This document shows, in pieces, positions 28,559 through 58,970 of a DNA stretch of 64,000 nt. The stretch is from Chiloscyllium plagiosum (lineage: Eukaryota). The notes under the pieces are model-generated. The model was not told where the DNA came from. It ran no database searches and saw only the letters and a list, made by a program, of their open reading frames with translations. A program made the translations under genes and the position numbers. The stretch covers positions 7,869,930-7,933,929 of the forward strand of contig NC_057753.1 in NCBI RefSeq assembly GCF_004010195.1, written 5' to 3'. Each line of letters begins with the position of its first letter. Positions within the stretch are counted from its first letter, which is position 1.

Positions 28559-28919
28559 ACTTTTCTCTGCCTCAAACTTAAAGTGAAATATAATCACATC
28601 ATGATCTCTGGAAACCTTCATTATGAATCGGCAACTTATTTTATCTTTTTGCCCAATAGAGCCTTTGGAAATGCAGCCTTTTAGTTAAGTCCAGAATGGG
28701 CATATATAAGAACTATTATGAAAACGTTATGTGAAGTCATTTTCAAACATTTTTTTTACCCATTTGATTGTATCCCTTCAAGAGATGCCATCGGTTTTGA
28801 GGAACTCCATAGAACATTGTGACGATGTGCAGGATGTGAGACGTGGCAGGTTCTTAGTTACAGAAGTTAATACTGGCATAGCGGACGTGATTGCAGAAAT
28901 AAAAGTGTGGTTCTGAAAT

Positions 28920-29085
28920 ATCACAGCCGATCAGGTAGTATCCAAAGAGCAGGAGAATCGACTTTTCGAGCATAAGCCATATTCGAAACATCGATTCTTC
29001 TGCTGCTCGGATACTGTCTGATCGGCTGTGATTTTCCACTCTAGACTCTGATGCCCAGAATCTGCAAGACCTCATTTTCTTCTGG
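28920..29085. mobile_element. Short inverted-repeat derivative of the Penelope terminal repeat
   Basis: GAGCAGGAGAATCGAC-TTTCG arm mirrored by CGAAACATCGATTCTTCTGCTGCTC. Confidence 0.7.
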
Positions 29086-31399: not shown

Positions 31400-31570
31400 A
31401 GTTGAGAGTGTCGTGCTAGATTGGAACAGCTGGTCAGGCAGATTCTGCGGAGCAGGAGAATCGACGTTTTGGGTATAACCTTTCATCAGTCATTCCTGAT
31501 GAAGGGCTTACGCCCGAAATGTTGATTCTCCTGCTCCTCGGATGCTGCCTGACCTGCTGTGCTTTCGCCC
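31400..31570. mobile_element. Short inverted-repeat Penelope-terminus derivative with a hammerhead-like core
   Basis: Mirrored arms; CTGATGA-AGGGCTTACGCCC-GAAAT at 31496-31520. Confidence 0.72.
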
Positions 31571-31929
31571 ATTTTTACAGGCATCCCACATTTCAACAAA
31601 CAACTCAGCGGGAATTGCACTACAGTCAAGTACTTTAAATGAATTGATATAAAACCAGCACACGAACGAAGAAATGGTAATTTGGCAAAATTGATTGTGA
31701 GGTGCATTGAAGGTGAGGTTAAAATAATAAGCATATTTTAGTTTTGGTTTGGAACATTCGGATGGAAATGAAGGCAGCTGTTATGAGTAAGAGTCTTGAT
31801 GTTAAGGTTGCCCGATGTTGTCTACGGGACTCGGTGGTAGCCCTATATCGGAACACGTTGATCAGGATACTTAACAAAGACTCCAAAATCACTGTGCAAA
31901 ATATGGTGTTACATATCGGGCTCGTCTGA

Positions 31930-36699: not shown

Positions 36700-38560
36700 A
36701 ATGGACGAGACGTGAAAAATACTGCAACCCAATTAAAATAATTCGTTTGCTATACTGGACTGTAAAAAGTATTCCTTAAATTCTAAGCACTAACTATTCC
36801 AGAATAACGCAAGGTTTTAATGGTGTGCTGTTCCAATAACTACAAGAACCACGTATATAACAAAACAACAGATTATTTTCTCTCGGAATTACAGAGGGAT
36901 TATGTGCCTTCCAGAATTTTCTCCGCTGATCTTTCCAACAGGAATGCTTTGCCTGTAGATTCGTCTGTCGGTAATACGTTCTCTGATCTGTCAGAAAGTC
37001 TTCTGTCAAGAATTTAGATGGTGTGGCACCAAACTGTGGTAAATGGTGATACTTTCTCGAAGACCCGTGAATTGTTATCCCTTAGCAAATATAAGTTTGC
37101 TCTGGGACTCTGTCTAACGCCCCCATTCTTTTATACAGATGAGGACACGTCAGTCTTTTACAATAGGTTTGGTCATATGTTCTCCAAACCATCAGACTTC
37201 AACTTAATGGGTTTTTGGTCGCTAAGGATCTAATCTAAATTGATTGGCTAAATTTAAAACCTGTTGTCTTGAAAACAAAATGCTGCTTGGCCTTTCGGTA
37301 AAAATGCTCCAATTTGTCTGTTCTCTGTGCACCTGCCAACCTCCTGCAAGCGCAGAAACAAAAGAAAACATTCTTAAAGTCAACAAACAATGATTTTCGC
37401 ATATAACAATTTTGCAGTTTTGCACACGTATGAACTTCACAAAAACCTCCCACTTAAGAAAAAATGAACTAGCATTATAAAAAGATAGCTTCATACTTCT
37501 TGAAAAACTTAACTTCATTGCATCACCAGACCCAAAGCTCATTAATCAAGTTTAAACACTTCAGACAAGTTTAATTGATATATAATCGTGAACACTACAG
37601 TTTACATTTGAAATAAAAAAAATTAAACTATGATAAAACATTCACGATAATATTTTCGCGAGCTGCAATGTGCACGTTATATGCAATCAGTAACTTAAGT
37701 GTTTGCAATATGAAACTCTGTTGAAATAATCTGTTATTCTTGTCCTTAAACCTTTCCAGAAATGTCAAATGATTGGGATCGATATGTACAATCATGTAAA
37801 CATGAAAATATTGTAAGACTTTAACAAACTGAATATCTCTTATTCAATGGTTGAACATTTTGTTCTCGTGGATACTGATATTTTTGAAATAAACAATTTG
37901 AGTGTCAATTCCACAATCATCGTCATGGGACAACACAGCACCGCTGGCAACAATGGTGGCCTCGAAGAGTTTCAAAACATTTAGCGGGGATAAAACAGGT
38001 GCAGTGGTTAACTCTGCTATTAAATTCTCAAGTGCATCCTGGTATTGTTTTGTCCATCAAAATTTCGTGTTCTTTTTTTAACAAATCCTTTATTGGCACA
38101 ATTACTCTGCAAAGTTTGTTCTTAATTTCCTGTAGAATACACTCTATCCTAAAAACCGTACCACTTCATTCTTCCAGGGTTGTCTTAGAATTTCCACGAT
38201 AGATATCGTTTTCACATTCATTAATGTCATCCATCCATCCGTGTTCGATATTGTAACGTCAGAATGTCACTTTCGCCTTTGCATTATCTGTTTTTCCAAG
38301 TTTATGACAAATTTTGCCGTCTACAGTGTCTCAAAGAATTCAGCCAGAATTTCCATGCGATCTTTCCATGAAGGACTGCAGAATAGCCAAGTCATCTACG
38401 CAGATGGCACAATTAGTCAATCCTTCAACAATTCTGTTCATATGTCTTTGGAAACTGACTGGTACATTTTGAATTCCAAAGTGTATCATTTTAAATTGAT
38501 GCAGCCCGTTTAGGATCACAAAGGCAGAAAGTTATTTTGCTCTTTCTGAGAATGTTACTT
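36700..38560 (-). mobile_element. 3' part (RT, RNase H, PPT, 3' LTR) of a second decayed Gmr1-type Gypsy element
   Basis: Minus strand reads SAFVILNGLHQFKMIHFGIQNVPVSFQRHMNRIVEGLTNCAICVDDL (RT motifs); purine tract AAGTGGGAGG just before TGTGAAG at 37441. Confidence 0.75.
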
Positions 38561-39060
38561 NNNNNNNNNNNNNNNNNNNNNNNNNNNNNNNNNNNNNNNN
38601 NNNNNNNNNNNNNNNNNNNNNNNNNNNNNNNNNNNNNNNNNNNNNNNNNNNNNNNNNNNNNNNNNNNNNNNNNNNNNNNNNNNNNNNNNNNNNNNNNNNN
38701 NNNNNNNNNNNNNNNNNNNNNNNNNNNNNNNNNNNNNNNNNNNNNNNNNNNNNNNNNNNNNNNNNNNNNNNNNNNNNNNNNNNNNNNNNNNNNNNNNNNN
38801 NNNNNNNNNNNNNNNNNNNNNNNNNNNNNNNNNNNNNNNNNNNNNNNNNNNNNNNNNNNNNNNNNNNNNNNNNNNNNNNNNNNNNNNNNNNNNNNNNNNN
38901 NNNNNNNNNNNNNNNNNNNNNNNNNNNNNNNNNNNNNNNNNNNNNNNNNNNNNNNNNNNNNNNNNNNNNNNNNNNNNNNNNNNNNNNNNNNNNNNNNNNN
39001 NNNNNNNNNNNNNNNNNNNNNNNNNNNNNNNNNNNNNNNNNNNNNNNNNNNNNNNNNNNN
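38561..39060. other. Assembly gap (500 N)
   Basis: N run. Confidence 1.
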
Positions 39061-39400
39061 CACGAGAACCACTTATGGTCAGGGGTCAGCACAGACATCG
39101 CAGTGTATGGGTTTGGAACTGGAACTGTTGGAGTGGAAACAACACAATTGATCCGTCTGAGATCATGGTTCCAGGCTGACTGGGAGGGTTCTAGCACCCC
39201 TGATGCTAACAATCCTTCAATTGTGTCGGCAATGCCGGCTTCAGCCTCTGGTTTGTGTGAATATTGTGTCTGCCAAATTGGAGTGTGGTCAATTAAATCG
39301 AATGTGATTGGTGTGACATGTTTGCAGTGACCAACGACCGTTGAACCTGCTGACCACAAGGTATCTGGTAGAGTATCAAGCATCGCTGCAGCCTGTGGAT
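39061..39400 (-). pseudogene. pol: ERV reverse transcriptase N-terminus with an internal deletion
   Basis: LPDTLWSAG..VG, IWQTQY, SAWN joined directly to HDLRRIN (expected TPILPV-type segment missing), VPNPYT, HKWFS. Confidence 0.88.
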
Positions 39401-39453
39401 GGTCTGTGTTTTTTCCCTGCCGTGAAACCTTTCAATCTGCCTATGTTCCAGCA

Positions 39454-39549
39454 GTGCTGGAAGAGCACAGCAATTCAGGCAGCATCCGAAAAGCTTCTTT
39501 TCGGATGCTGCCTGAATTGCTGTGCTCTTCCAGCACCACTGATCCAGAA
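39454..39549. mobile_element. 96-bp perfect-hairpin Penelope-terminus derivative inserted in ERV pol
   Basis: 40-bp arms 39454-39493 and 39497-39536; 12-bp TSD TATGTTCCAGCA at 39442-39453 and 39550-39561. Confidence 0.9.
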
Positions 39550-39561
39550 TATGTTCCAGCA

Positions 39562-40060
39562 ATACCTTGTCAGTTGTCCTGTACATAATTCTATAGGCTT
39601 CCTCTGATGGTGAATATTGAAAACCGGGTAGCTGAGTCCAAACCCAATCAGTTAGCGCCATCATACGTTTGGACATAGGTCCCAGATGTTTGGCCTGATA
39701 GCTAGCATGCACGGCCAATGTGAGATGAGGTATAGCTTCTTCAGACATCTCATACCATTCCAACTGTTCTGCAGTCAGTTCAATAACACCTGCCACACCT
39801 TCTTTCCCTATCAGCATACAACTAGAAGAAATATCCCATTGAGTCCCTTCTAAGTGCTGATAGAAAGCATGCTGATAGATTTCATTATCATCTCTATCAT
39901 AATACAGGGTAAGATGAAGGGAATCTGCAGGAGGAGCATAGGGATGCAGCATCTGACCCCAGGGTCGCCATTGGCTGTATAAAGACTGTATACCGTTGTT
40001 CTGCCTGTTTTCGGGTTCCAGGAGTCCCCAGTATATATCTGCCCACTGCCCTTCTGCCAT
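39562..40060 (-). pseudogene. 2H phosphoesterase (CNPase-like) domain within ERV pol
   Basis: Two HxT motifs, SLHLTL and IPHLTL, ~64 aa apart, followed by AKHLGPM; lies between protease and RT. Confidence 0.75.
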
Positions 40061-40083
40061 TGGTAATGTGTCCGGTGATAGCA

Positions 40084-40485
40084 TCATTTGAGATCCAGAT
40101 TTGTCATAGAACAGTTGTCAGAATAGCCATTTGGAAAGATCACTACCAGCCCATCTGGTCCGCACAGAAGCGAGACCCCACATCTCACCAGCAAGTGACG
40201 GCCCATCAGATTCACAGGGCATGCAGGCGATGAAATATACCGGTGACGAAAGGTCTGTCCGGCCACTGATGTGATCAGTGGCGATGTCAAAGGCAGATTT
40301 TCTGGTTTACCCGAGAACCCGACTAACTGGACGCTGGAGGATGACATATTTGACCGAGGTATATCACAAGTGATGGTAGAAAATCTTGCACCCGTGTCAA
40401 CCAAAAAAGACAGATTCTTGTCCATTACCCTCATTTACATATAGGGGTCTGTCAACCACACATGCCCCTGGATTCTCGGGTCCCG
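40084..40485 (-). pseudogene. pro: ERV aspartic protease
   Basis: LSFLVDTGARFSTI, LVGFSGK, CPVNLMGRHLL; one premature TAA at 40435-40437. Confidence 0.9.
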
Positions 40486-42392
40486 TCAATATTTGTACCC
40501 CTGCCCGCCCGGCATAGTCTGGGGGTACTGTCCTTGCACCGGGGCTGCAGCTGTATTTGGGACTTGGTAAGGCTGAGCAGCCTGTTGAAAAGGAGGCTGA
40601 CTTGAGCGGACATATTGTCCTCGGATCAATCCCTGGCCTCCCTTCTAGCCTCATCGAGCTGTAACTTCAGCAACTGCACTTGAGCAGACTCGTTGCTCTG
40701 TTTATCTTCATCCTGTTTTGTCCTGTAATGCTTCATGTGGTGCGTCACGTGTTTCTCCCATTGTTCTGTAGAACAGCCTGGGATATCAGGATTACTCTCC
40801 ATTGCCTATTTTACTACCTTAGGCATCCCTACCATAAGGGCATTCCTACATAACGTAGTCTGTAGCTGACCCGACCCTGGATGGCTTCCCGCAGTATCTG
40901 TCCACGTGCCCTTACACCTAGCCAAAAAGGCAGGCATATCCTCACCCTCCTTCATTGTGAAGGTGAATGAGTGCGTTGCTCCAGGTGGAATCGGAAATCT
41001 ATCCCTCATTGTCCATCCGACACAAGTGGCATGCTGCACAAACGGTTCCAAATCAGGTAGTAAGGTGGTCCCCGCAGACCCTTCAATCTGCTATATTTCC
41101 TACATATTCAATTGCTTGCCCAACAATGCTCTCCAATCGCCCATAACTAACTTGAACTCTAGTGTATATTGGCAAAATTTAGTCATCCAAGTCCCACCTC
41201 CCTCCATGGGTGGGGGCATTTTATCCAGGATGCAGTTCATATCAGTAAATGTGAAGGGCTGATAAACATCCCCCATGTAAGTGCCTCTGTAAATTAATGG
41301 CATTTGGTGGTGCTGATACTTTATGGGTTGTCGTAATGTGTCTCTGTGACGCAGATTGTAACTTGATTCAGGTAGGTGCTTCAGTGGAGGGCCATGTTCG
41401 GTATGTATTTTGAGTGAGCCTTTCAAAGTGACGGGGTAGGTGTGTGGGTCATCATCTGTCAGGGATTCTTCGTCCTCAATATCTCTACTATTTTCAGACT
41501 CCCCCCCCCCCCCATCCAATTTGTCTCTCAAATCTCTCCTTCTCCTGTCTGAGAACCCGTCATCTAGTAACTGACCTGAGTTATATAATCTTCCCCTCCT
41601 TTCGCTCTCAATACTATACGGTGTCGAGTGAGCATCTGGCTCTTCCAATAATGAATGCCTCCCTTGTTTCGGCTGTTCTTTGTTTCTGCTGTGCGTCATT
41701 ATCACCCTGCTTGCCTCCTCCGCTTCTTTAACTCTCCGTTGAGCTTCTAGTGTTAGTTTTTCTACCTTTCTGATGCTTTCTTCTACTGCTTCCGCCAGTC
41801 TCTCTTTTACTGTTTCGTACTCTTTTGTTCCTACTTCTTGCACATCCAACACCCCTTCTTGAACATACATAAGTGGCATTTGTGTTACAGGATATGGGGG
41901 CGGTGATTGTACCCCAGGCGATTTTGAATATAATGGCGCGGATGGTCCAGCCTTTTCTGTCTCTTCGCCAGTTTTGTCTTAGAGGTACCACCCACCCTCT
42001 GTTGTAATGTTTCTACCGCCATACAGGCTAACGTCATGTGCAGGTGAATCCTCCTCTCTTGTTTCTCCTCGCCTTCTTTTGTCCACTTTCTTCTAACTAA
42101 TATTGACCCTTTCTTTCCCTTCATATGCTCTTGAACTTCTAATTTAGCTTGCTCTTCTGCTTTTCCTAAAAACGGTGACAATTCCTCCCTCTCCTCATCT
42201 TTAGGGACTTTGCCCTGTTGTTGTAATTCGTCCCAAATCTTATCATATTTCTCCATCATTGTTTTTTGTTTGTCCTTTGCAAGTCCACTAACTAACTGAC
42301 TTCGAGCTTTATCCACTACTGTTTACGGGCAACATTAAGTCAAAAGAACATCCTCCGTATTCCTCACACTCTTTATCAAATTCCCCTTCCAT
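40486..42392 (-). pseudogene. gag: ERV gag, disrupted by frameshifts and stops
   Basis: ATG at 42392; ORF pieces 41885..42316, 41100..41879 (PFTFTDM..ILDKMPPPMEGGGTW..GDWRALL) and 40806..41051; Gln/Pro-rich C-terminus ending GQGYKY-TGA. Confidence 0.8.
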
Positions 42393-42763
42393 TTTACGTA
42401 TTTTTGTTTTAATCCTCCCGTCTAGCAGTCAATTGGTTTGGATATAATATAACCGAGCAACTAACCCAATCAGAGACAAATCTGGTGGCCAGTCAGTTTG
42501 TATGGAGTACACCCGAGCAACTGACCCTTTCAGCGAGATTTATCAGCAGTGTCGTTGTTATCACCGTTATCACCGTTAGGTTTCCACTGCCAACTCTCTC
42601 TCGCTGAGACACCACCGTCCCTGTCTTCAAGACACTACTGGCTTTTCTGCCACCCTCCGTACATTCCCCAATATAAGTTTTAAAACAACACAATCATACA
42701 GCACAATTTGTGAGCGTTGCTTTTATGAGATCCTGCTCAATGGACTTTAAACCTCCTCACATT

Positions 42764-42875
42764 TACGTACCTTGTTGCTTTTACGGGGACTCTAACCTAA
42801 AGGGACTTTAAACCCGTACGTACCTTGTTGCTTTTATGGGGACTCTAACCCCAAGGGACTTTAAACCTGTACGTG
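42764..42875. repeat. 53-bp tandem repeat (two full copies plus partial ones) in the ERV leader
   Basis: TACGTACCTTGTTGCTTTTAyGGGGACTCTAACC..AAGGGACTTTAAACC starting at 42764 and 42817. Confidence 0.9.
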
Positions 42876-43079
42876 CTATAACAATACTTTATCCACTTAC
42901 TATTACTAGGACACTTGCAGTGTAATGACAACAATCAATGTAGTATTTCCAATTGCAGAACTTCGATATAAACAGGCGTCTGCTCACTTTTTTTTATGCG
43001 GCGCCGCTTGTTGTTGTCATCAGACGTCAGTTGTCCAATGTTTCTATTTTTCTCTCTTTTCCGTAACTTCTCCATCTTC

Positions 43080-43097
43080 ATCACGTCGGAGTCACCA
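43080..43097 (-). promoter_or_regulatory. Primer-binding site complementary to the tRNA-Trp 3' end
   Basis: TGGTGACTCCGACGTGAT, 17/18 match to the canonical Trp PBS TGGTGACCCCGACGTGAT. Confidence 0.88.
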
Positions 43098-43100
43098 AAT

Positions 43101-43839
43101 TGTCGGACTTTAGCTCAATCTACCAGCTTAATTTCTTCTATGTGTGAGCCAAGTCCTGCGTGTTCTTTAAATGAAGCAATAGGAGAAGATATTCGGGTCT
43201 CACACTTTTAGTTTGTTTTAGCAATAAGTGAATAAAGTATACAGAGCTCTGGGGCTAGACCTTCCCATTCCTGACAAACAGCAGAATGTGTCAGTTCACG
43301 AAGTCTGACCCCTATCCTTCCCCTGACCCAGTCTTTTATACAGTACAAAACGTCATGTAATCACAGAACATTGTGCAAACATTGAGGTGTGGTTGTCTTC
43401 TTGATTGACTGTTGACCTGACTCCATTCTCCGCCTTCTCGCGTTCCCGAATATCTGACCCCATGTGACCTTCTTCTGCAGGAGGTGGCGCGAAATAGTTT
43501 TTTTTTCACCACAGCTTACAACATGTCCTGCATCTGCACTCACAGGGCGGCAACACCCCCGCTGTCTGCCTCGCTCTCCCAGCCGCTACCAAGGCCGCCA
43601 ATACACACTGCTCTTTATTAAAAGTCATTCCTATTGTGTGTTTACATTGGCATATCTTTACAAGTCAGATGTACTCAGTACTTTTCCACTGTCTGTTCGT
43701 ACAGACAAGGGTTACACTACAAACTGTGCTAGTTAATGGTTAAGTATAACATTGTATTATAAGTACTGAAATAAATATAAGATTAAAGGCTTCTGAATGC
43801 CTCAAACTAAGCCATATATTTACAATACACAATCTAACA
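43101..43839 (-). repeat. 5' LTR of the ERV (739 bp)
   Basis: Minus strand TGTTAGA...TCCGACA imperfect inverted termini; TATAAAAG at ~43333-43340; PBS starts 3 nt downstream; outer flank is Gypsy integrase. Confidence 0.85.
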
Positions 43840-46260
43840 GTGAGATTTCTGAGTTCGAACTTATCAACTTTTCCTAAGTTACTTTGAAAGGCCCTCTAAT
43901 TTCATACCCGAGTGGCATTTCAAATGGCGTGAATTGGGTCATTTTATTTGTAGCATCTCTAATAATATATAATATGAATGTGGTATGTTTATCCCAATCG
44001 TTTGGATAATTCTGGGAGTAAGCAATAAACATAATCTTTCGGGTCTAAAGCCATCATTCCAATGTTCCCTTGGATTTGGGATAATGCCCACTTGATGCAA
44101 AGTTTTTGATGCGTAAAATGTCCATGGCCCTCTTAAATAATTTGGCAGTAAGATATAACCATTAGTTTGACAGAATTCCCCTGGGTAGTTCATAACGAAT
44201 AAAGAAAGCAAGCAAATCCTCAGCAAATTTTTTTTGGCCTTGGCATTCCCTAATGGAACCGCCTCCAGAAACTTGGAATAGATTATGGTTAGTTAATATT
44301 GATTCTCAATTTTGGTTTGGTGGGGGACTTACACAATCAATCATAACGCGTATAAATTGTTTTCCAGTGCGGGAATTGGCATCAAAAGCATAAGTTTGAT
44401 CACGGCCTGTCGAATTCATACCTATCTGACGTACGGCGAAATTCAAACGCATTCTTATGCAATCTAAGCTATTAAAATGCTGCTATGTCTTAACCTGAGT
44501 CTTCGCCACTCCTAGATGCACACCTACAAGTAATTTGTGTGCTACCCGCAATATCCCCTGTTGGTACTCTACTGGCAACACGATCTGGTGAACGTTCGCC
44601 CAGTTCTCATCCGCAAGGTCTCCTTTTCCACCTTAAGATTTTGTCCTTCAGACAATAGCATTCAGGAATAAACTCAGATTCCTTTCCCACGTAGGCTTTA
44701 GGATACAAATCCTTTACCGTCTCATCTTTTTGTTGTAGGTCCATTAATCTGTCACAACTAAACACCTGTGCTTGATCCTCTACTTGCTCAGGTTTTCTCT
44801 TTCACATTTCATCAAATAGAGTGTCAGCTAACTGGATCTCAACTCCTTCATGTTTCAATTTGTCTTCCCTTCTTGTTTTAACTTATGGCTGTGGGATCTG
44901 GTCACCGCACAATCTGGAAATATTCCAGGGTGATTCTCTTTTAGCTTCTCAGTTCACTGGTTTTCTTCTTTTTTTTCTGCCCCCGTACAACAGGCAGAAC
45001 TCTCACCAGTGATTCGGCTGTATCATTTCAAAGAATAAGCTGTATTCCTGGAACACCAAATTGTTCTACCACTTCCTTTATCTCTTCCCAGTCTTGATCG
45101 GACTTTTTCGATCTTTCAAAGGGGAAAGTTGCTTCTCTCACCATTTTTCCACAGATTACCACTCCCTTGGGCGGTATTTCAGAAGTACACATTTTCTCAT
45201 CTCTCACTATTAGAGACTGACTAGCTCCTTTTTCTAGGTAAAACGAGCACCACTTTAATCTAGAATCTAGTTCCTTTATCTCCCAATATTTTGCCTCCTT
45301 AACCTACTCTCCCTATTCTAAATGAGTAAATCTTACCCGCACAGGTGAAGTCTTTGAAAAGTTCGGGCATTATCTTACTCTCCCGTTCATGACTAGGCTG
45401 TGCACTCTTCTGCTGCTCTTTGAGATCTTTCAGGATTTGCTTCACTACATGAATTAATCTCTCTAGTTTAGCCTCTTTTAGCACAATTTTCTTCCCAGTG
45501 TCGTTCTTAATCCACCAGCACTGTGACTTTGTGTGTCCCAGTTTAATGCATTGAAAATATTTGAGTTCTGTCGCCTCATTTCCAACGTCATGCGTTTCAT
45601 TCTTCACATGCACTAACTTGTTCCTAGCGTGACTTACTTTTTGTTTCTTCTTTGAAGGATCTCCGTCTTTCCAAATTTATGTCCTCCACACAACGAAACT
45701 AATGTCAGAAGGTAAGTTTCGATCCATGCATTACTGCATATTCATCTTCCATTTCTGCTGCTTACCACGCTGTTTTAACTTTCTGTTGCTCAATATGTGT
45801 TTTTGTCACTTCTGGAAATGCATTTTTAAACTCCTGAAGAAAATAATATCTCCAAGAGCCTCGTGTATCTTTTCTAACTCTAATAATGTCTTCCATCTTT
45901 CGAAGTTATTCTGTTTAGTTCTTTCAAGCTCGATATAATTCTGAGCTGGTTCCTTTCTTACATTTCTGAACCAATCCCTGTATGCCCGTGTAAGCAATTC
46001 ATAGGCAATTCTCTTACAGCGCTGCAAATACTTACTAGCCCTGCCTATCAGCTTGGCCCGAATTAACTCTTCCCAAACAATCTCTGGTCAGTTCATTTGG
46101 TTAGCCAATTTGTCATTTTTGTTAATTGAAAAAGGTTTCTCCACTTTTTGCATCGAATTTTGGTAATGTTTTTGATATATTTGTATGTATGTCTATCAGG
46201 TCTTTGGCTACAATGGATTTGCTAATCATCGCTATCCTCATCATAAACCGACCTGTTGAA
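43840..46260 (-). mobile_element. 5' part (gag, protease remnant, integrase) of a decayed Gmr1-type Gypsy element
   Basis: gag LPKFD, AYELLTRAYRDWFRNVRK (SCAN-like), knuckle remnant QCIKLGHTKSQCW; integrase VAHKLLVGVHLGVAKT, IDCVSP, FTPFEMPLGYEIRGP. Confidence 0.8.
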
Positions 46261-50085: not shown

Positions 50086-50350
50086 AGGAGTGTCTACTTC
50101 TGCAAATGATGCACATCCTACAAGATGTTCTGTCCAAAATGATGTCGAATTCCTTGAGTTTTATTGGATCTGCACTCATCCAGGCAGGTCGGAAGTGTTG
50201 TGTCATAATGTTGAAGCTGATGGTCGACCATCTTTCAGGGGACGGGATCGTTATCAGGTGAGCTACTCACTGCCTATATATGGCCTTTTTTGAAGATTAT
50301 CCATTAGTTCTCATTGACTTAGTCTTGAAGTTGCAGTATTAATATTTCCC

Positions 50351-50546
50351 TGGCAGGTCAGGCAACATCCAAAGAGCAGGAGAATCAACGTTTCGGGCAT
50401 GAGCCCTTCTTCAGGAACCCTGAAGAAGGACTCATGCCCGAAACGTCGATTCTCCTGCTCTTTGGATGCTGCCTGACCTGCTGCGCTTTTCCAGCAACAC
50501 ATTTTCAGCTCTGATCTCCAGCATCTGCATTCCTCACTTTCTCCCC
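50351..50546. mobile_element. Palindromic Penelope-terminus derivative with TSD
   Basis: Arms ~50353-50415 and ~50419-50481; TSD GTATTAATATTyCCC (14/15) at 50336-50350 and 50547-50561. Confidence 0.82.
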
Positions 50547-50849
50547 GTATTAATATTCCCCGTCGATTTCGGATTCAGACGACTATTACCATTAGATTCT
50601 GATAGTTAGGCACTTAGAAATGCAAGTGACTGTGCTGTACAAGGAATGACGATTAGGTTGTCTGTTGGTGTAGATTTACACTCACATACATGTGTGGTAC
50701 GAATGTTACTTGTCATCCGATACAGTTGTTTAAAAAATTCGAATGTACAAAGTTTGTCAGCATTGTTCTGTGCACAAAATATAATACAAATCCAATCCAA
50801 TCAACTACCCCTTTCGTGTACTTTCAACGTGATGTAAGGCATTGTAAGT

Positions 50850-54559: not shown

Positions 54560-56700
54560 TAAACAAAAGAGAAACAGGCAATTCCAATCTTCAATCTGTG
54601 CTAATCATCAAAATATAAAACAAATCTTCTGATCTATTTGGTTCGCATCTCTTTATTCCCTCTCTATTCTTGTAATCAACCAGACAGCTCTTAAATAGCT
54701 GAAAATGTGTTGCTGGAAAAGCGCAGCAGGTCAGACAGCATCCAAGGAACAGGAGAATCGACGTTTCGGGCATAAGCCCTTCTTCAGGAATGAGGAAAGT
54801 GTGTCCAGCAGGCTTTTATCTTAGCAACACATTTTCAGCTCTGATCTCCAGCATCTGCAGTCCTCACTTTCTCCTCGAAGCTCTTAAATAGCGTCAACTT
54901 GCCTGCTTCCACCACCTCTTCCAAGCTCATAATATTCTCTGCGTGAAAAACATCTTTCATCGTACATCTCCCTGCAACATTCGCCCCTCACCTTGAACCT
55001 GTGACCCCTTGTAATTGAAACCCCAAACCTGGGGAGAAAAACACTCTACCTATTCATCGTACCTATGCCTCTCATCATTTTGTAGACCGCTGTAAGGTTT
55101 CCTTTCAGTCTTAATTTTTCCAGTGAAAACAATCCTCATCTTTCTACCCTTCGCATAGCCAATGCCCTGGAGACAGGTAACAGTTCTCTACACTCCCTCC
55201 AAAGCTTTCACGTCCTTCTGATAATGTGGCGACCAAACATGCATAAAGTACGCCAAATGCGGCCTAACCTAAGTTTTATACAGCTGCAACATGGCTTGCC
55301 AACTCTTATATTCCTTGCTGCAGCCGATGAAGTCAACCTTTGCAGTACCTGTCTCAGCACCTTGACTACCTGTGTTGCGAATTTCAGGGAACTGTGAACC
55401 TGCACGCCCAAATCCGTCCGAATGTTAATTTTCCTAAGGGTTCTGTCAGCTAAAGTTAAATTAACACCTAATTTGATCCTCCAAAATCCATCACCTCGCA
55501 TTTGTCTGAATTAAACTCCATCTGCCATTCCTGTATCCAAGTCGCCAATTTCCTGTTGTATCCTTTCACAATCGTCGGCAGGATCAGCACCTTTACCAAT
55601 CTTCATATGATCTCCAAACTTGCTAATCTGACCACCCACATTTTCCTCGAGATTATTCTTCATATACACTTCAAATATTAGAGAATCTAGGACCGATCCC
55701 TATGGAATCCGACTAGTTATACGTCTTCATTCTGGAAACAAATATTATTCTTCCTCGGCTGCCCTCTGTCTTCTATGACTAAGTCACATTTGTATACATC
55801 TGGCCAGCCTATCCCGAATCCCACGTGATTTCAGTTTTTACACAAATCGTGGATGTTAGACTATATCGACGTCTTGCTAAAATCCATATAAATTGCATTC
55901 ACCGCCCTCGCCTAATCAAAAATCTTTATCACGACTTCAAAACATTCAGTCGTGCTGCTTACACATAACTTACCAGGTACAAAACCATGCTGCCTGTCAC
56001 TAACCAGTTCATTTTCATCCAATTGTGCATAAATCTTGTAACTCAGTATTTTATCCAAGATCTTCCCCGCCACAGACATCAGGCTCACCTGCCTATCATT
56101 TCCTGTTTTATCCCTGCTTTATTTTTACACGAGGGAACAACATTGACTAAGCGTCAGTCCTCTAGATCCTCACCTGCTGCCAAATTGGATGTGAAGATAT
56201 CTGCTAATTTTCCAATTGTTTCTGCCATGGCCTCTCGCAGAAACCTGGGATAGATCCTATTTGTCCCTGGAAACTTGCCTACCGTAATGCAAGTTAGGAT
56301 ACCGAAGATCTCCTCCTTCAATGTACTGATATTCTGAATATTATTCACACACTCATGCCTGACATCAGAATGAGTCATGTCCTTTTCCTTGGTGATTTTC
56401 CATGCAATGTATTCATTCTGGATCTTTCCTACTTCCTGTGACCCCATGCATAACCTTCTTTTTTTGTCCTTGAGCAGGCCTAATCTTTCCCTTGCTATCC
56501 TCTATCATCTGAGACATGCATAAAAAGCCTTGGGATTCTCCTTGACCCTGTTCTCTAACTATACCCCTGGTTGCTTTTAGCCTTCCTAATTCCACCTTTA
56601 AGCTCCTTCCTATTTTATGTAAAGTTCTCATAGTCTTTGTCTGTTTCTAACTGCCTAGACCTATCGTTTGCTTCATCCTTCCATTTCAATAAGCTTTCAA
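54560..56700 (-). mobile_element. Degenerate CR1 ORF2
   Basis: PGTNRIYPRFLREA..I...LADIFTS; DLGVQVHSSLKFATQV. Confidence 0.85.
54700..54878. mobile_element. Short Penelope-terminus derivative with a perfect 14-bp TSD, inserted in CR1
   Basis: TSD AGCTCTTAAATAGC at 54686-54699 and 54879-54892; inverted AAAATGTGTTGCT/AGCAACACATTTT. Confidence 0.85.
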
Positions 56701-58257: not shown

Positions 58258-58970
58258 GAATTTATTTTATCCGTTGCTCCCGATGTGGTCTCCTCTACAT
58301 TGGGAAGACTGGATGCCTCAATGCAGAGCGCTTTAGGGAACATCTCCGGGACACCCGCACCAATCAATCCCACTGCCCTGTGGCCCAACATTTCAACTCA
58401 CTCTCCCACTCTGCCGAAGACATGCACGTCCTGGGCCTCCTCCACTGCCGCTCCCTCACCACCCGACGCCTGGATGAAGAACGTCTCACCTTCTGCCTTG
58501 GAACACTTCAACCCCAGGGCATCAATGTGGATTTCACCAGTCTCCTCATTTCCCCTCACCCCACCTTATCCCAGGTCCTACCTTCCAGCTCAGAACCGTC
58601 CCCATGACTTGTCCTACCTGCTTATCTTCTTTTCCACCTATCCACTACACCCTCCTCTCCGACCTATCACCTTGATCCTCACCCCATTCATCCATTGTAC
58701 TCTTTACTACCTTCCCCAATCTCCTCTCTGTCCTATCACCTCCATGTCCACCTGCAATCACCTATTGTACTCTATGCTACTTTCTCCAACCCCCACCCCC
58801 TCCCAGTTATCTCTCCACCCCGAAGGTTCCCTGCTCATATTCCTGATGAAAGGCTTTTGCTCGAAACGTCGATTTTCCTGCTCTCTGGATGCTACCTGAC
58901 CTGCTGTGCTTTTCCAGCACCACTCTAATCCAGAATCAGGTTTCCAACATTTGCAGTCCTCGTTTTTACC
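58258..58970 (+). mobile_element. 5'-truncated Penelope-like element (GIY-YIG C-terminus, 3' region, terminal repeat)
   Basis: IRCSRCGLLYIGKT, RFREHLRDTR, VAQHFNSLSHS; TSD TATyCCTTAGGGAAAG (15/16) at 58242-58257 and 58971-58986; CTGATGA..GAAACGTC at 58843-58870. Confidence 0.88.

Follow-up and report, generated by a model that had tools for sequence, protein, structure and literature searches.

Some epsilon-like fish ERVs are reported to encode CNPase or macro domains (Basta 2009, as cited in the accessible part of PMC4977317), and 2H domains have been described in a fish retrovirus and in WDSV (Mazumder 2002, as cited in the accessible part of PMC9503650). A preliminary description of the locus studied here had appealed to such a precedent in piscine retroviruses, and these two sources, as far as their accessible text goes, back it. 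In CNPase itself, which converts 2',3'-cyclic phosphates to 2'-phosphates, His309 activates water and His230 protonates the 3'-O; its helix α7, conserved in vertebrate CNPases, is missing from other 2H enzymes and may determine stereospecificity (PMC4643303, accessible part). Excerpts of PMC3290555 report that rat CNPase heals tRNA ends in yeast, where it replaces the CPDase of Trl1, and excerpts of PMC5434554 describe CNPase as descended from tRNA healing enzymes. SSSV and ZFERV have a UGA at the gag-pro boundary (PMC13517186, in part). The words CNPase, phosphodiesterase and domain are absent from the shark ERV paper PMC4422223, and our literature searches, with most subscription papers outside their reach, turned up no study that put a retroviral 2H domain to a functional test.

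The window analysed here, a 64,000-nucleotide stretch of Chiloscyllium plagiosum DNA, holds a defective LTR retroelement on its minus strand, with a putative 5' LTR, a primer-binding site, gag, a protease, a 2H segment and the start of RT. The LTR lies at 43101..43721, its outer end being unsure because no 3' LTR is present in the window and a related contig reaches 43765. Three bases past its CA end a putative primer-binding site starts with TGG (43080..43097) and in our view resembles a tRNA-Trp site; Rfam and ARAGORN gave no match in the window. The leader before gag contains a 53-bp tandem duplication (42764-42869), whose unit number varies among related copies. Degenerate gag, with several stops and frameshifts, occupies 40489..42392 and is followed by the gag-pro junction at 40483..40488, where TGA-CGG is a candidate for stop-codon readthrough, comparable to the UGA found in ZFERV and SSSV. 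The aspartic protease, with its DTGA motif, lies at 40100..40434 (Pfam RVP, E 9e-9), directly downstream of an in-frame stop (40437-40435). Between protease and 2H domain is a linker (40046..40099) with a Gln-hydrophobic motif, predicted to be disordered and a likely protease cleavage site. The main part of the predicted CNPase-like 2H phosphoesterase domain covers 39551..40045, and its last strand resumes a few residues beyond an insertion at 39442..39549. The end of that strand and the N-terminal part of RT take up 39062..39441, the RT N-terminus having been placed at 39413-39063 by tblastn of homologues. All of these coding features are on the minus strand. A 500-N assembly gap (38561-39060) ends the readable RT, and the 3' half of the element falls in the gap.

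The ERV is seemingly nested in an older Gypsy-like element, of which minus-strand remnants are found at 43871-45676 and 37601-38498. Those upstream are zinc-knuckle-like and integrase-like, read by eye and without Pfam match, and those beyond the gap are RT and RNase H remnants with weak Pfam matches. This order, integrase before RT, recalls what we take to be the order of Gmr1.

This copy is dead and cannot make a 2H-carrying protein. It is broken by a stop at 40437, by frameshifts near 40096-40099 and 39407-39413 and by the 108-bp insertion, so that the preliminary description was right to call it defective and to see an insertion in it. The insertion is flanked by a 12-bp direct repeat (39442/39550) and holds a near-perfect 83-bp palindrome (39454-39536; folding z-score −16) belonging to a very abundant host repeat. 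The insertion is specific to this copy, as two contigs from a related run lack precisely 108 bases at this point, and we rejected it as a part of the domain. In the model of the natural homologue P0005 the domain is predicted to end about 8 residues beyond the end first given for it, which would put the insertion inside the last strand. Members of the palindrome's repeat family also lie at 28902-29046, 31405-31577, 50329-50547, 54702-54877 and 58842-58924. The words CTGATGA and GAAAC in some of these copies recall, as we presume, a hammerhead core, and the copies had no Rfam match at the gathering score. Single-cell RNA from a related organism (run X21, about 2% sampled) gave a depth below 1 in bins within the 2H domain, and the few reads on the LTR and gag (40642-43485) were of one orientation; so small a sample carries no firm weight on expression. 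As these reads are mostly less than 95% alike to the window, they come from other copies of the ERV family.

Two HxT motifs had been noted between the DTGA protease and RT, and both are found within 39563-40060, in the stop-to-stop frame 39293-40117 (minus strand), with the His codon of LHLTL at 39916-39914 and that of PHLTL at 39727-39725. Numbered from the Met at 40060, these are H49-L-T51 (39908..39916) and H112-L-T114 (39719..39727), the first and second predicted catalytic motifs, their histidines 63 residues apart. A loose pattern of two hydrophobic-H-x-[T/S]-hydrophobic motifs spaced by 50-110 residues, picked after the motifs had been seen, occurs in one of the 61 window ORFs of at least 100 aa; shuffling the 2H domain 20,000 times produced 4 cases. 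This rarity, together with the retention of both motifs in homologues (130 of 144), led us to reject chance as their origin.

Homologues were collected in steps: a single-sequence search gave nine longer proteins, a profile of these nine gave 66 matches among 8000 scored candidates, and 380 representatives reached E<=0.001 in the full profile search, 150 of them listed. Those matches that are full-length are Pol proteins of retroviruses, in which protease, RT, RNase H and integrase are all present. Three of them (P0002, P0057 and P0061) are ordered PR-RT-RNase H-IN and also have a second RNase H and an IN C-terminus of MLV type, MLVIN_C being above cut-off only in P0057. When 204 proteins were compared, both Hx[T/S] motifs were kept in 130 of the 144 that span both, so the motifs are conserved across related ERV copies, as the preliminary description had supposed. 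H49 is conserved in 99% and H112 in 97% of the homologues, and the motifs are kept in 63 and 64 of 65 profile-match rows; the nearest homologue, P0001 (90% identity), has Tyr at position 49. Over 61 of 74 rows, pairs are on average 38% identical in the 2H domain and 54% in RT; for the C-terminal half of the protease the mean is 39% over 48 rows. Domain and RT distances correlate with a Spearman coefficient of 0.60, the pairs not being independent and the RT tree being a quick version on 61 of 74 rows. The conserved histidines and this correlation suggest that the domain travelled with Pol under constraint.

By hand count the hosts of the 66 matches comprise 36 teleosts, 3 cartilaginous fish (Chiloscyllium punctatum twice, and Narcine), 2 bacterial MAGs and 25 unnamed. 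The nearest named homologue is from Chiloscyllium punctatum (90%). With 36 of the 39 matches named to vertebrates coming from teleosts (hand count), and the domain carried by a broad fish ERV clade, we rejected a shark-specific novelty; the trait that had been ascribed to a shark-resident lineage is spread far more widely. In a FastTree of 62 of the 65 rows the window copy and P0001 group together with 99% support and are joined next, weakly (88%), by sequences from Narcine, a cluster with a grouper member and the remora Echeneis naucrates, at 58-62% identity. Such a topology may reflect switches of host between sharks and teleosts. Two Pol fragments labelled as bacterial MAG (P0040 and P0044; Cetobacterium, Plesiomonas) group with ERVs of loach and of a zebrafish relative, and are likely host DNA in gut metagenomes. 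The searches and two viral_contigs scans returned no named SSSV, ZFERV or WDSV sequence, and the trees hold none.

The unaltered 166-residue stretch of the window was modelled by AlphaFold2 with 65 sequences, giving a pLDDT of 94.7 and a pTM of 0.88, and each motif opens a core strand of the model (residues 49-55 and 112-118). In a Foldseek search of the PDB (50 matches, E<=0.001) all among the matches listed are CNPase or goldfish RICH, which supports the 2H fold proposed for this segment and narrows it. A wide VIA search placed CNPase at Z 15.4 (162 aligned, rmsd 4.3) and other 2H proteins at 7.3 or below. Its top 21 rows include ns2, VP3, Usb1, AKAP18, Acb1 and CNPase, with Z values of 6.6 for MHV ns2, 6.5 for Acb1, 6.4 for AKAP18, 6.1 for the penguinpox cGAMP PDE and 5.5-6.0 for VP3. 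A second structural comparison gave CNPase up to Z 16.6 (157 aligned, rmsd 2.6), RICH 12.8 and the fungal RNA kinase entry 6u05 11.0. In the ESM Atlas, clusters of fungal tRNA-ligase CPD and 2H-SAK scored 0.95-0.96; recognition there reached 2291 against a mark of 2300, and we take these clusters as a lead only. By sequence, the window domain had no Pfam and no PDB match. CNPase accounted for 21 of 21 PDB matches of the homologue P0090 (best E 0.016), Pfam CNPase was matched weakly by one of 43 members (E 0.011), and profiles of the homologues found no CNPase, one of them matching only RT, through flanking columns.

The model also resembles CNPase in detail. A helix after the second motif (residues 123-134) stands at the place of α7, matched by position. 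By spacing from the histidines, three substrate-binding residues of CNPase would have equivalents: Y54 for Phe235 (62 of 65 rows), P44 for Pro225 (90%) and G127 for Gly324 (96%), the last taken from the title of 7qzs. Y10 in the first strand is 92% conserved, and the alignment ranges place CNPase Tyr168, which lies beneath the ribose, at residue 9 or 10. Two equivalents are changed: position 110, that of Arg307, is A, V, S, I or E, mostly A or V, and position 124, that of Val321, is K or R in nine of nine rows. The substrate may therefore differ from that of CNPase, and we infer that the basic residue at 124 takes over the electrostatic role of Arg307. Taken together, the models suggest that the segment is a 2H domain of predicted CNPase-type fold, a new member of the type known from fish retroviruses. 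We call it CNPase-like and not host CNPase because a protease, and not an N-terminal PNK-like domain, precedes it.

The flanks of the domain were surveyed in 46 of 235 proteins that have the whole domain and both flanks, 42 after removal of near-duplicates. A Gln-hydrophobic-hydrophobic motif is present in 26 of the 42 protease-2H linkers and in 9 of the 42 2H-RT junctions, where it is scattered; the 2H-RT junction is nearly constant in length around a conserved RxHGRExTDH. The WDSV protease recognises Gln at P2 (PMC13517186, in part). In the model of P0005 (pTM 0.76) residues 58-75 of the protease-2H linker are disordered, with pLDDT below 50, the last strand of the domain runs to residue 246 and the 2H-RT junction has a pLDDT of 86-97. 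Because the linker appears disordered and cleavable and the 2H-RT junction ordered, we infer from this one model and a loose motif that the protease likely frees the domain from itself and leaves it on RT.

On balance we lean towards the reading that a captured CNPase-like 2H domain, left on RT, hydrolyses 2',3'-cyclic phosphates to 2'-phosphate and 3'-OH. Here, a domain likely captured from a host gene would have entered Pol of an epsilon-like fish retrovirus. Gag-Pol would be made by UGA readthrough and then packaged, and the protease would cut at the Gln-hydrophobic site ahead of the 2H domain. In the resulting 2H-RT protein H112 would act as base and H49 as acid, as H309 and H230 do in CNPase. 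The substrates would be what metal-independent RNases leave behind, RNA ends or free nucleotides, and the place of action the producer cell, the virion or the reverse-transcription complex. Of the interpretations put forward in the preliminary description, removal of 2',3'-cyclic phosphates fits best, judged by the modelled fold. Speaking against the reading we favour, a 2'-phosphate left over may block priming.

A bolder form of this reading, which we regard as unlikely, is an RT with a built-in healing domain, the fused captured CNPase turning >p ends into extendable 3'-OH and so countering host RNases. The ends to be healed would be nuclease-cut 2',3'-cyclic phosphates on the primer tRNA or on nicked genomic RNA. 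In our literature searches an RT-fused RNA end-healing counter-defence was reported for no retrovirus.

The changes at positions 110 and 124, which make the pocket unlike that of CNPase, would also suit a domain able to break down 2'3'-cGAMP or some other cyclic dinucleotide. Fish have cGAS-STING, and retroviral cDNA is sensed by cGAS; an enzyme of this kind could blunt the sensing of reverse transcripts in situ. The viral 2H enzymes with this job match the model only weakly (Acb1 at Z 6.5, the penguinpox cGAMP PDE at 6.1), whereas CNPase, at 15.4, scores more than double and the α7-like helix is present; we think this substrate quite improbable. Loss of the Arg307 equivalent would likewise suit a domain that mainly binds, whether to act as a decoy for host CNP or compete with it, or to help RT by binding RNA, and the interferon-induced host CNP does bind HIV Gag and block assembly (cited in the accessible parts of PMC3832489 and PMC5434554). 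Against binding, the two histidines and the two Thr/Ser rank with the best-conserved positions of a domain with a mean identity of 38%, which points to catalysis. Pol is usually made at a low level relative to Gag and would therefore be a poor source of decoy, and we give a mainly binding role just as little credence.

Processing of Appr>p is very improbable. CNPase and macro domains both occur in epsilon-like fish ERVs (Basta 2009, per the accessible part of PMC4977317) and Appr>p is listed as a substrate of 2H enzymes (PMC9503650, in part), but the Arabidopsis Appr>p CPDase reached a Z of only 6.3-7.0 and no macro domain was found in the six homologous polyproteins scanned, the element's own 3' half lying in the assembly gap. 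Least of all do we expect cleavage of 2-5A that would block RNase L as coronavirus ns2 and rotavirus VP3 do, the analogy drawn in the preliminary description: these enzymes are of the same superfamily and a functional OAS-RNase L pair persists in cartilaginous fish, but ns2 (Z 6.6) and VP3 (5.5-6.0) score far below CNPase (15.4), OAS-RNase L was lost in the ray-finned fish ancestor (both points from the accessible part of PMC10400998) and 36 of the 39 vertebrate-named carriers are teleosts, which makes this reading weak, while the motifs are still kept across the teleost-dominated matches (63 and 64 of 65 rows), among which the shark copy is nested in the tree.

In itself the locus is an unremarkable dead copy. 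What we add is the assignment to the CNPase subfamily, the host-range argument against 2-5A and the predicted attachment to RT, the last of which makes a long-noted feature of fish retroviruses directly testable. Conservation of the histidines across hosts from rays to cichlids, in a domain kept in both Pol and Env, points to a real and unexplained pressure on retroviral replication. Moreover, the abstract of PMC3290555 describes CNPase's own physiological substrate as unknown, which would make a compact viral version a handy probe.

Compared with vertebrate CNPase and fish RICH (PF05881), the viral domain appears to share the fold, the two Hx[T/S] motifs, an α7-like helix and, by spacing, the equivalents of Phe235, Pro225 and Gly324. 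It differs from them in being 12-20% identical, about 45 residues shorter, without a PNK-like domain at the N-terminus and embedded in a polyprotein, with the Arg307 and Val321 equivalents altered. With ns2, VP3, MERS NS4b, Acb1 and the penguinpox PDE it has in common the 2H superfamily and the nature of a virus-encoded accessory enzyme. Structurally, ns2, VP3, Acb1 and the penguinpox PDE form a far more distant branch (Z 5.5-6.6 against 15.4 for CNPase), and most named hosts of the fish ERV clade lack the 2-5A pathway that ns2-type enzymes target.

The closest kin are the fish retroviruses themselves. The epsilon-like ones (Basta 2009 and Mazumder 2002, as cited in the accessible parts of the sources above) likewise have a CNPase-type 2H domain, and the host here, in contrast to those reported, is a shark. 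As in SSSV and ZFERV there is an in-frame UGA at gag-pro (TGA-CGG at 40488), here a putative readthrough site. In a library of viral structures (BFVD) the best match of the model was Q2VF30 (TM 0.89, 30%), which we take to be the SSSV polyprotein, followed by the Env polyproteins Q9WHI8 (WEHV1, E 1.5e-8) and A4GTG3 (WDSV, E 1.5e-7). Walleye dermal sarcoma virus and walleye epidermal hyperplasia virus 1 thus match in structure at a TM of 0.65-0.67 and 16-18% identity, but carry the CNPase-like match in Env, whereas the window element carries it in Pol. It follows that not every viral copy can depend on coupling to RT. The presence of such a domain in two genes may reflect one capture followed by a move, or two captures. 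Fish retroviruses have retained a CNPase-like enzyme both in Pol, as here, and in Env, as in the walleye viruses.
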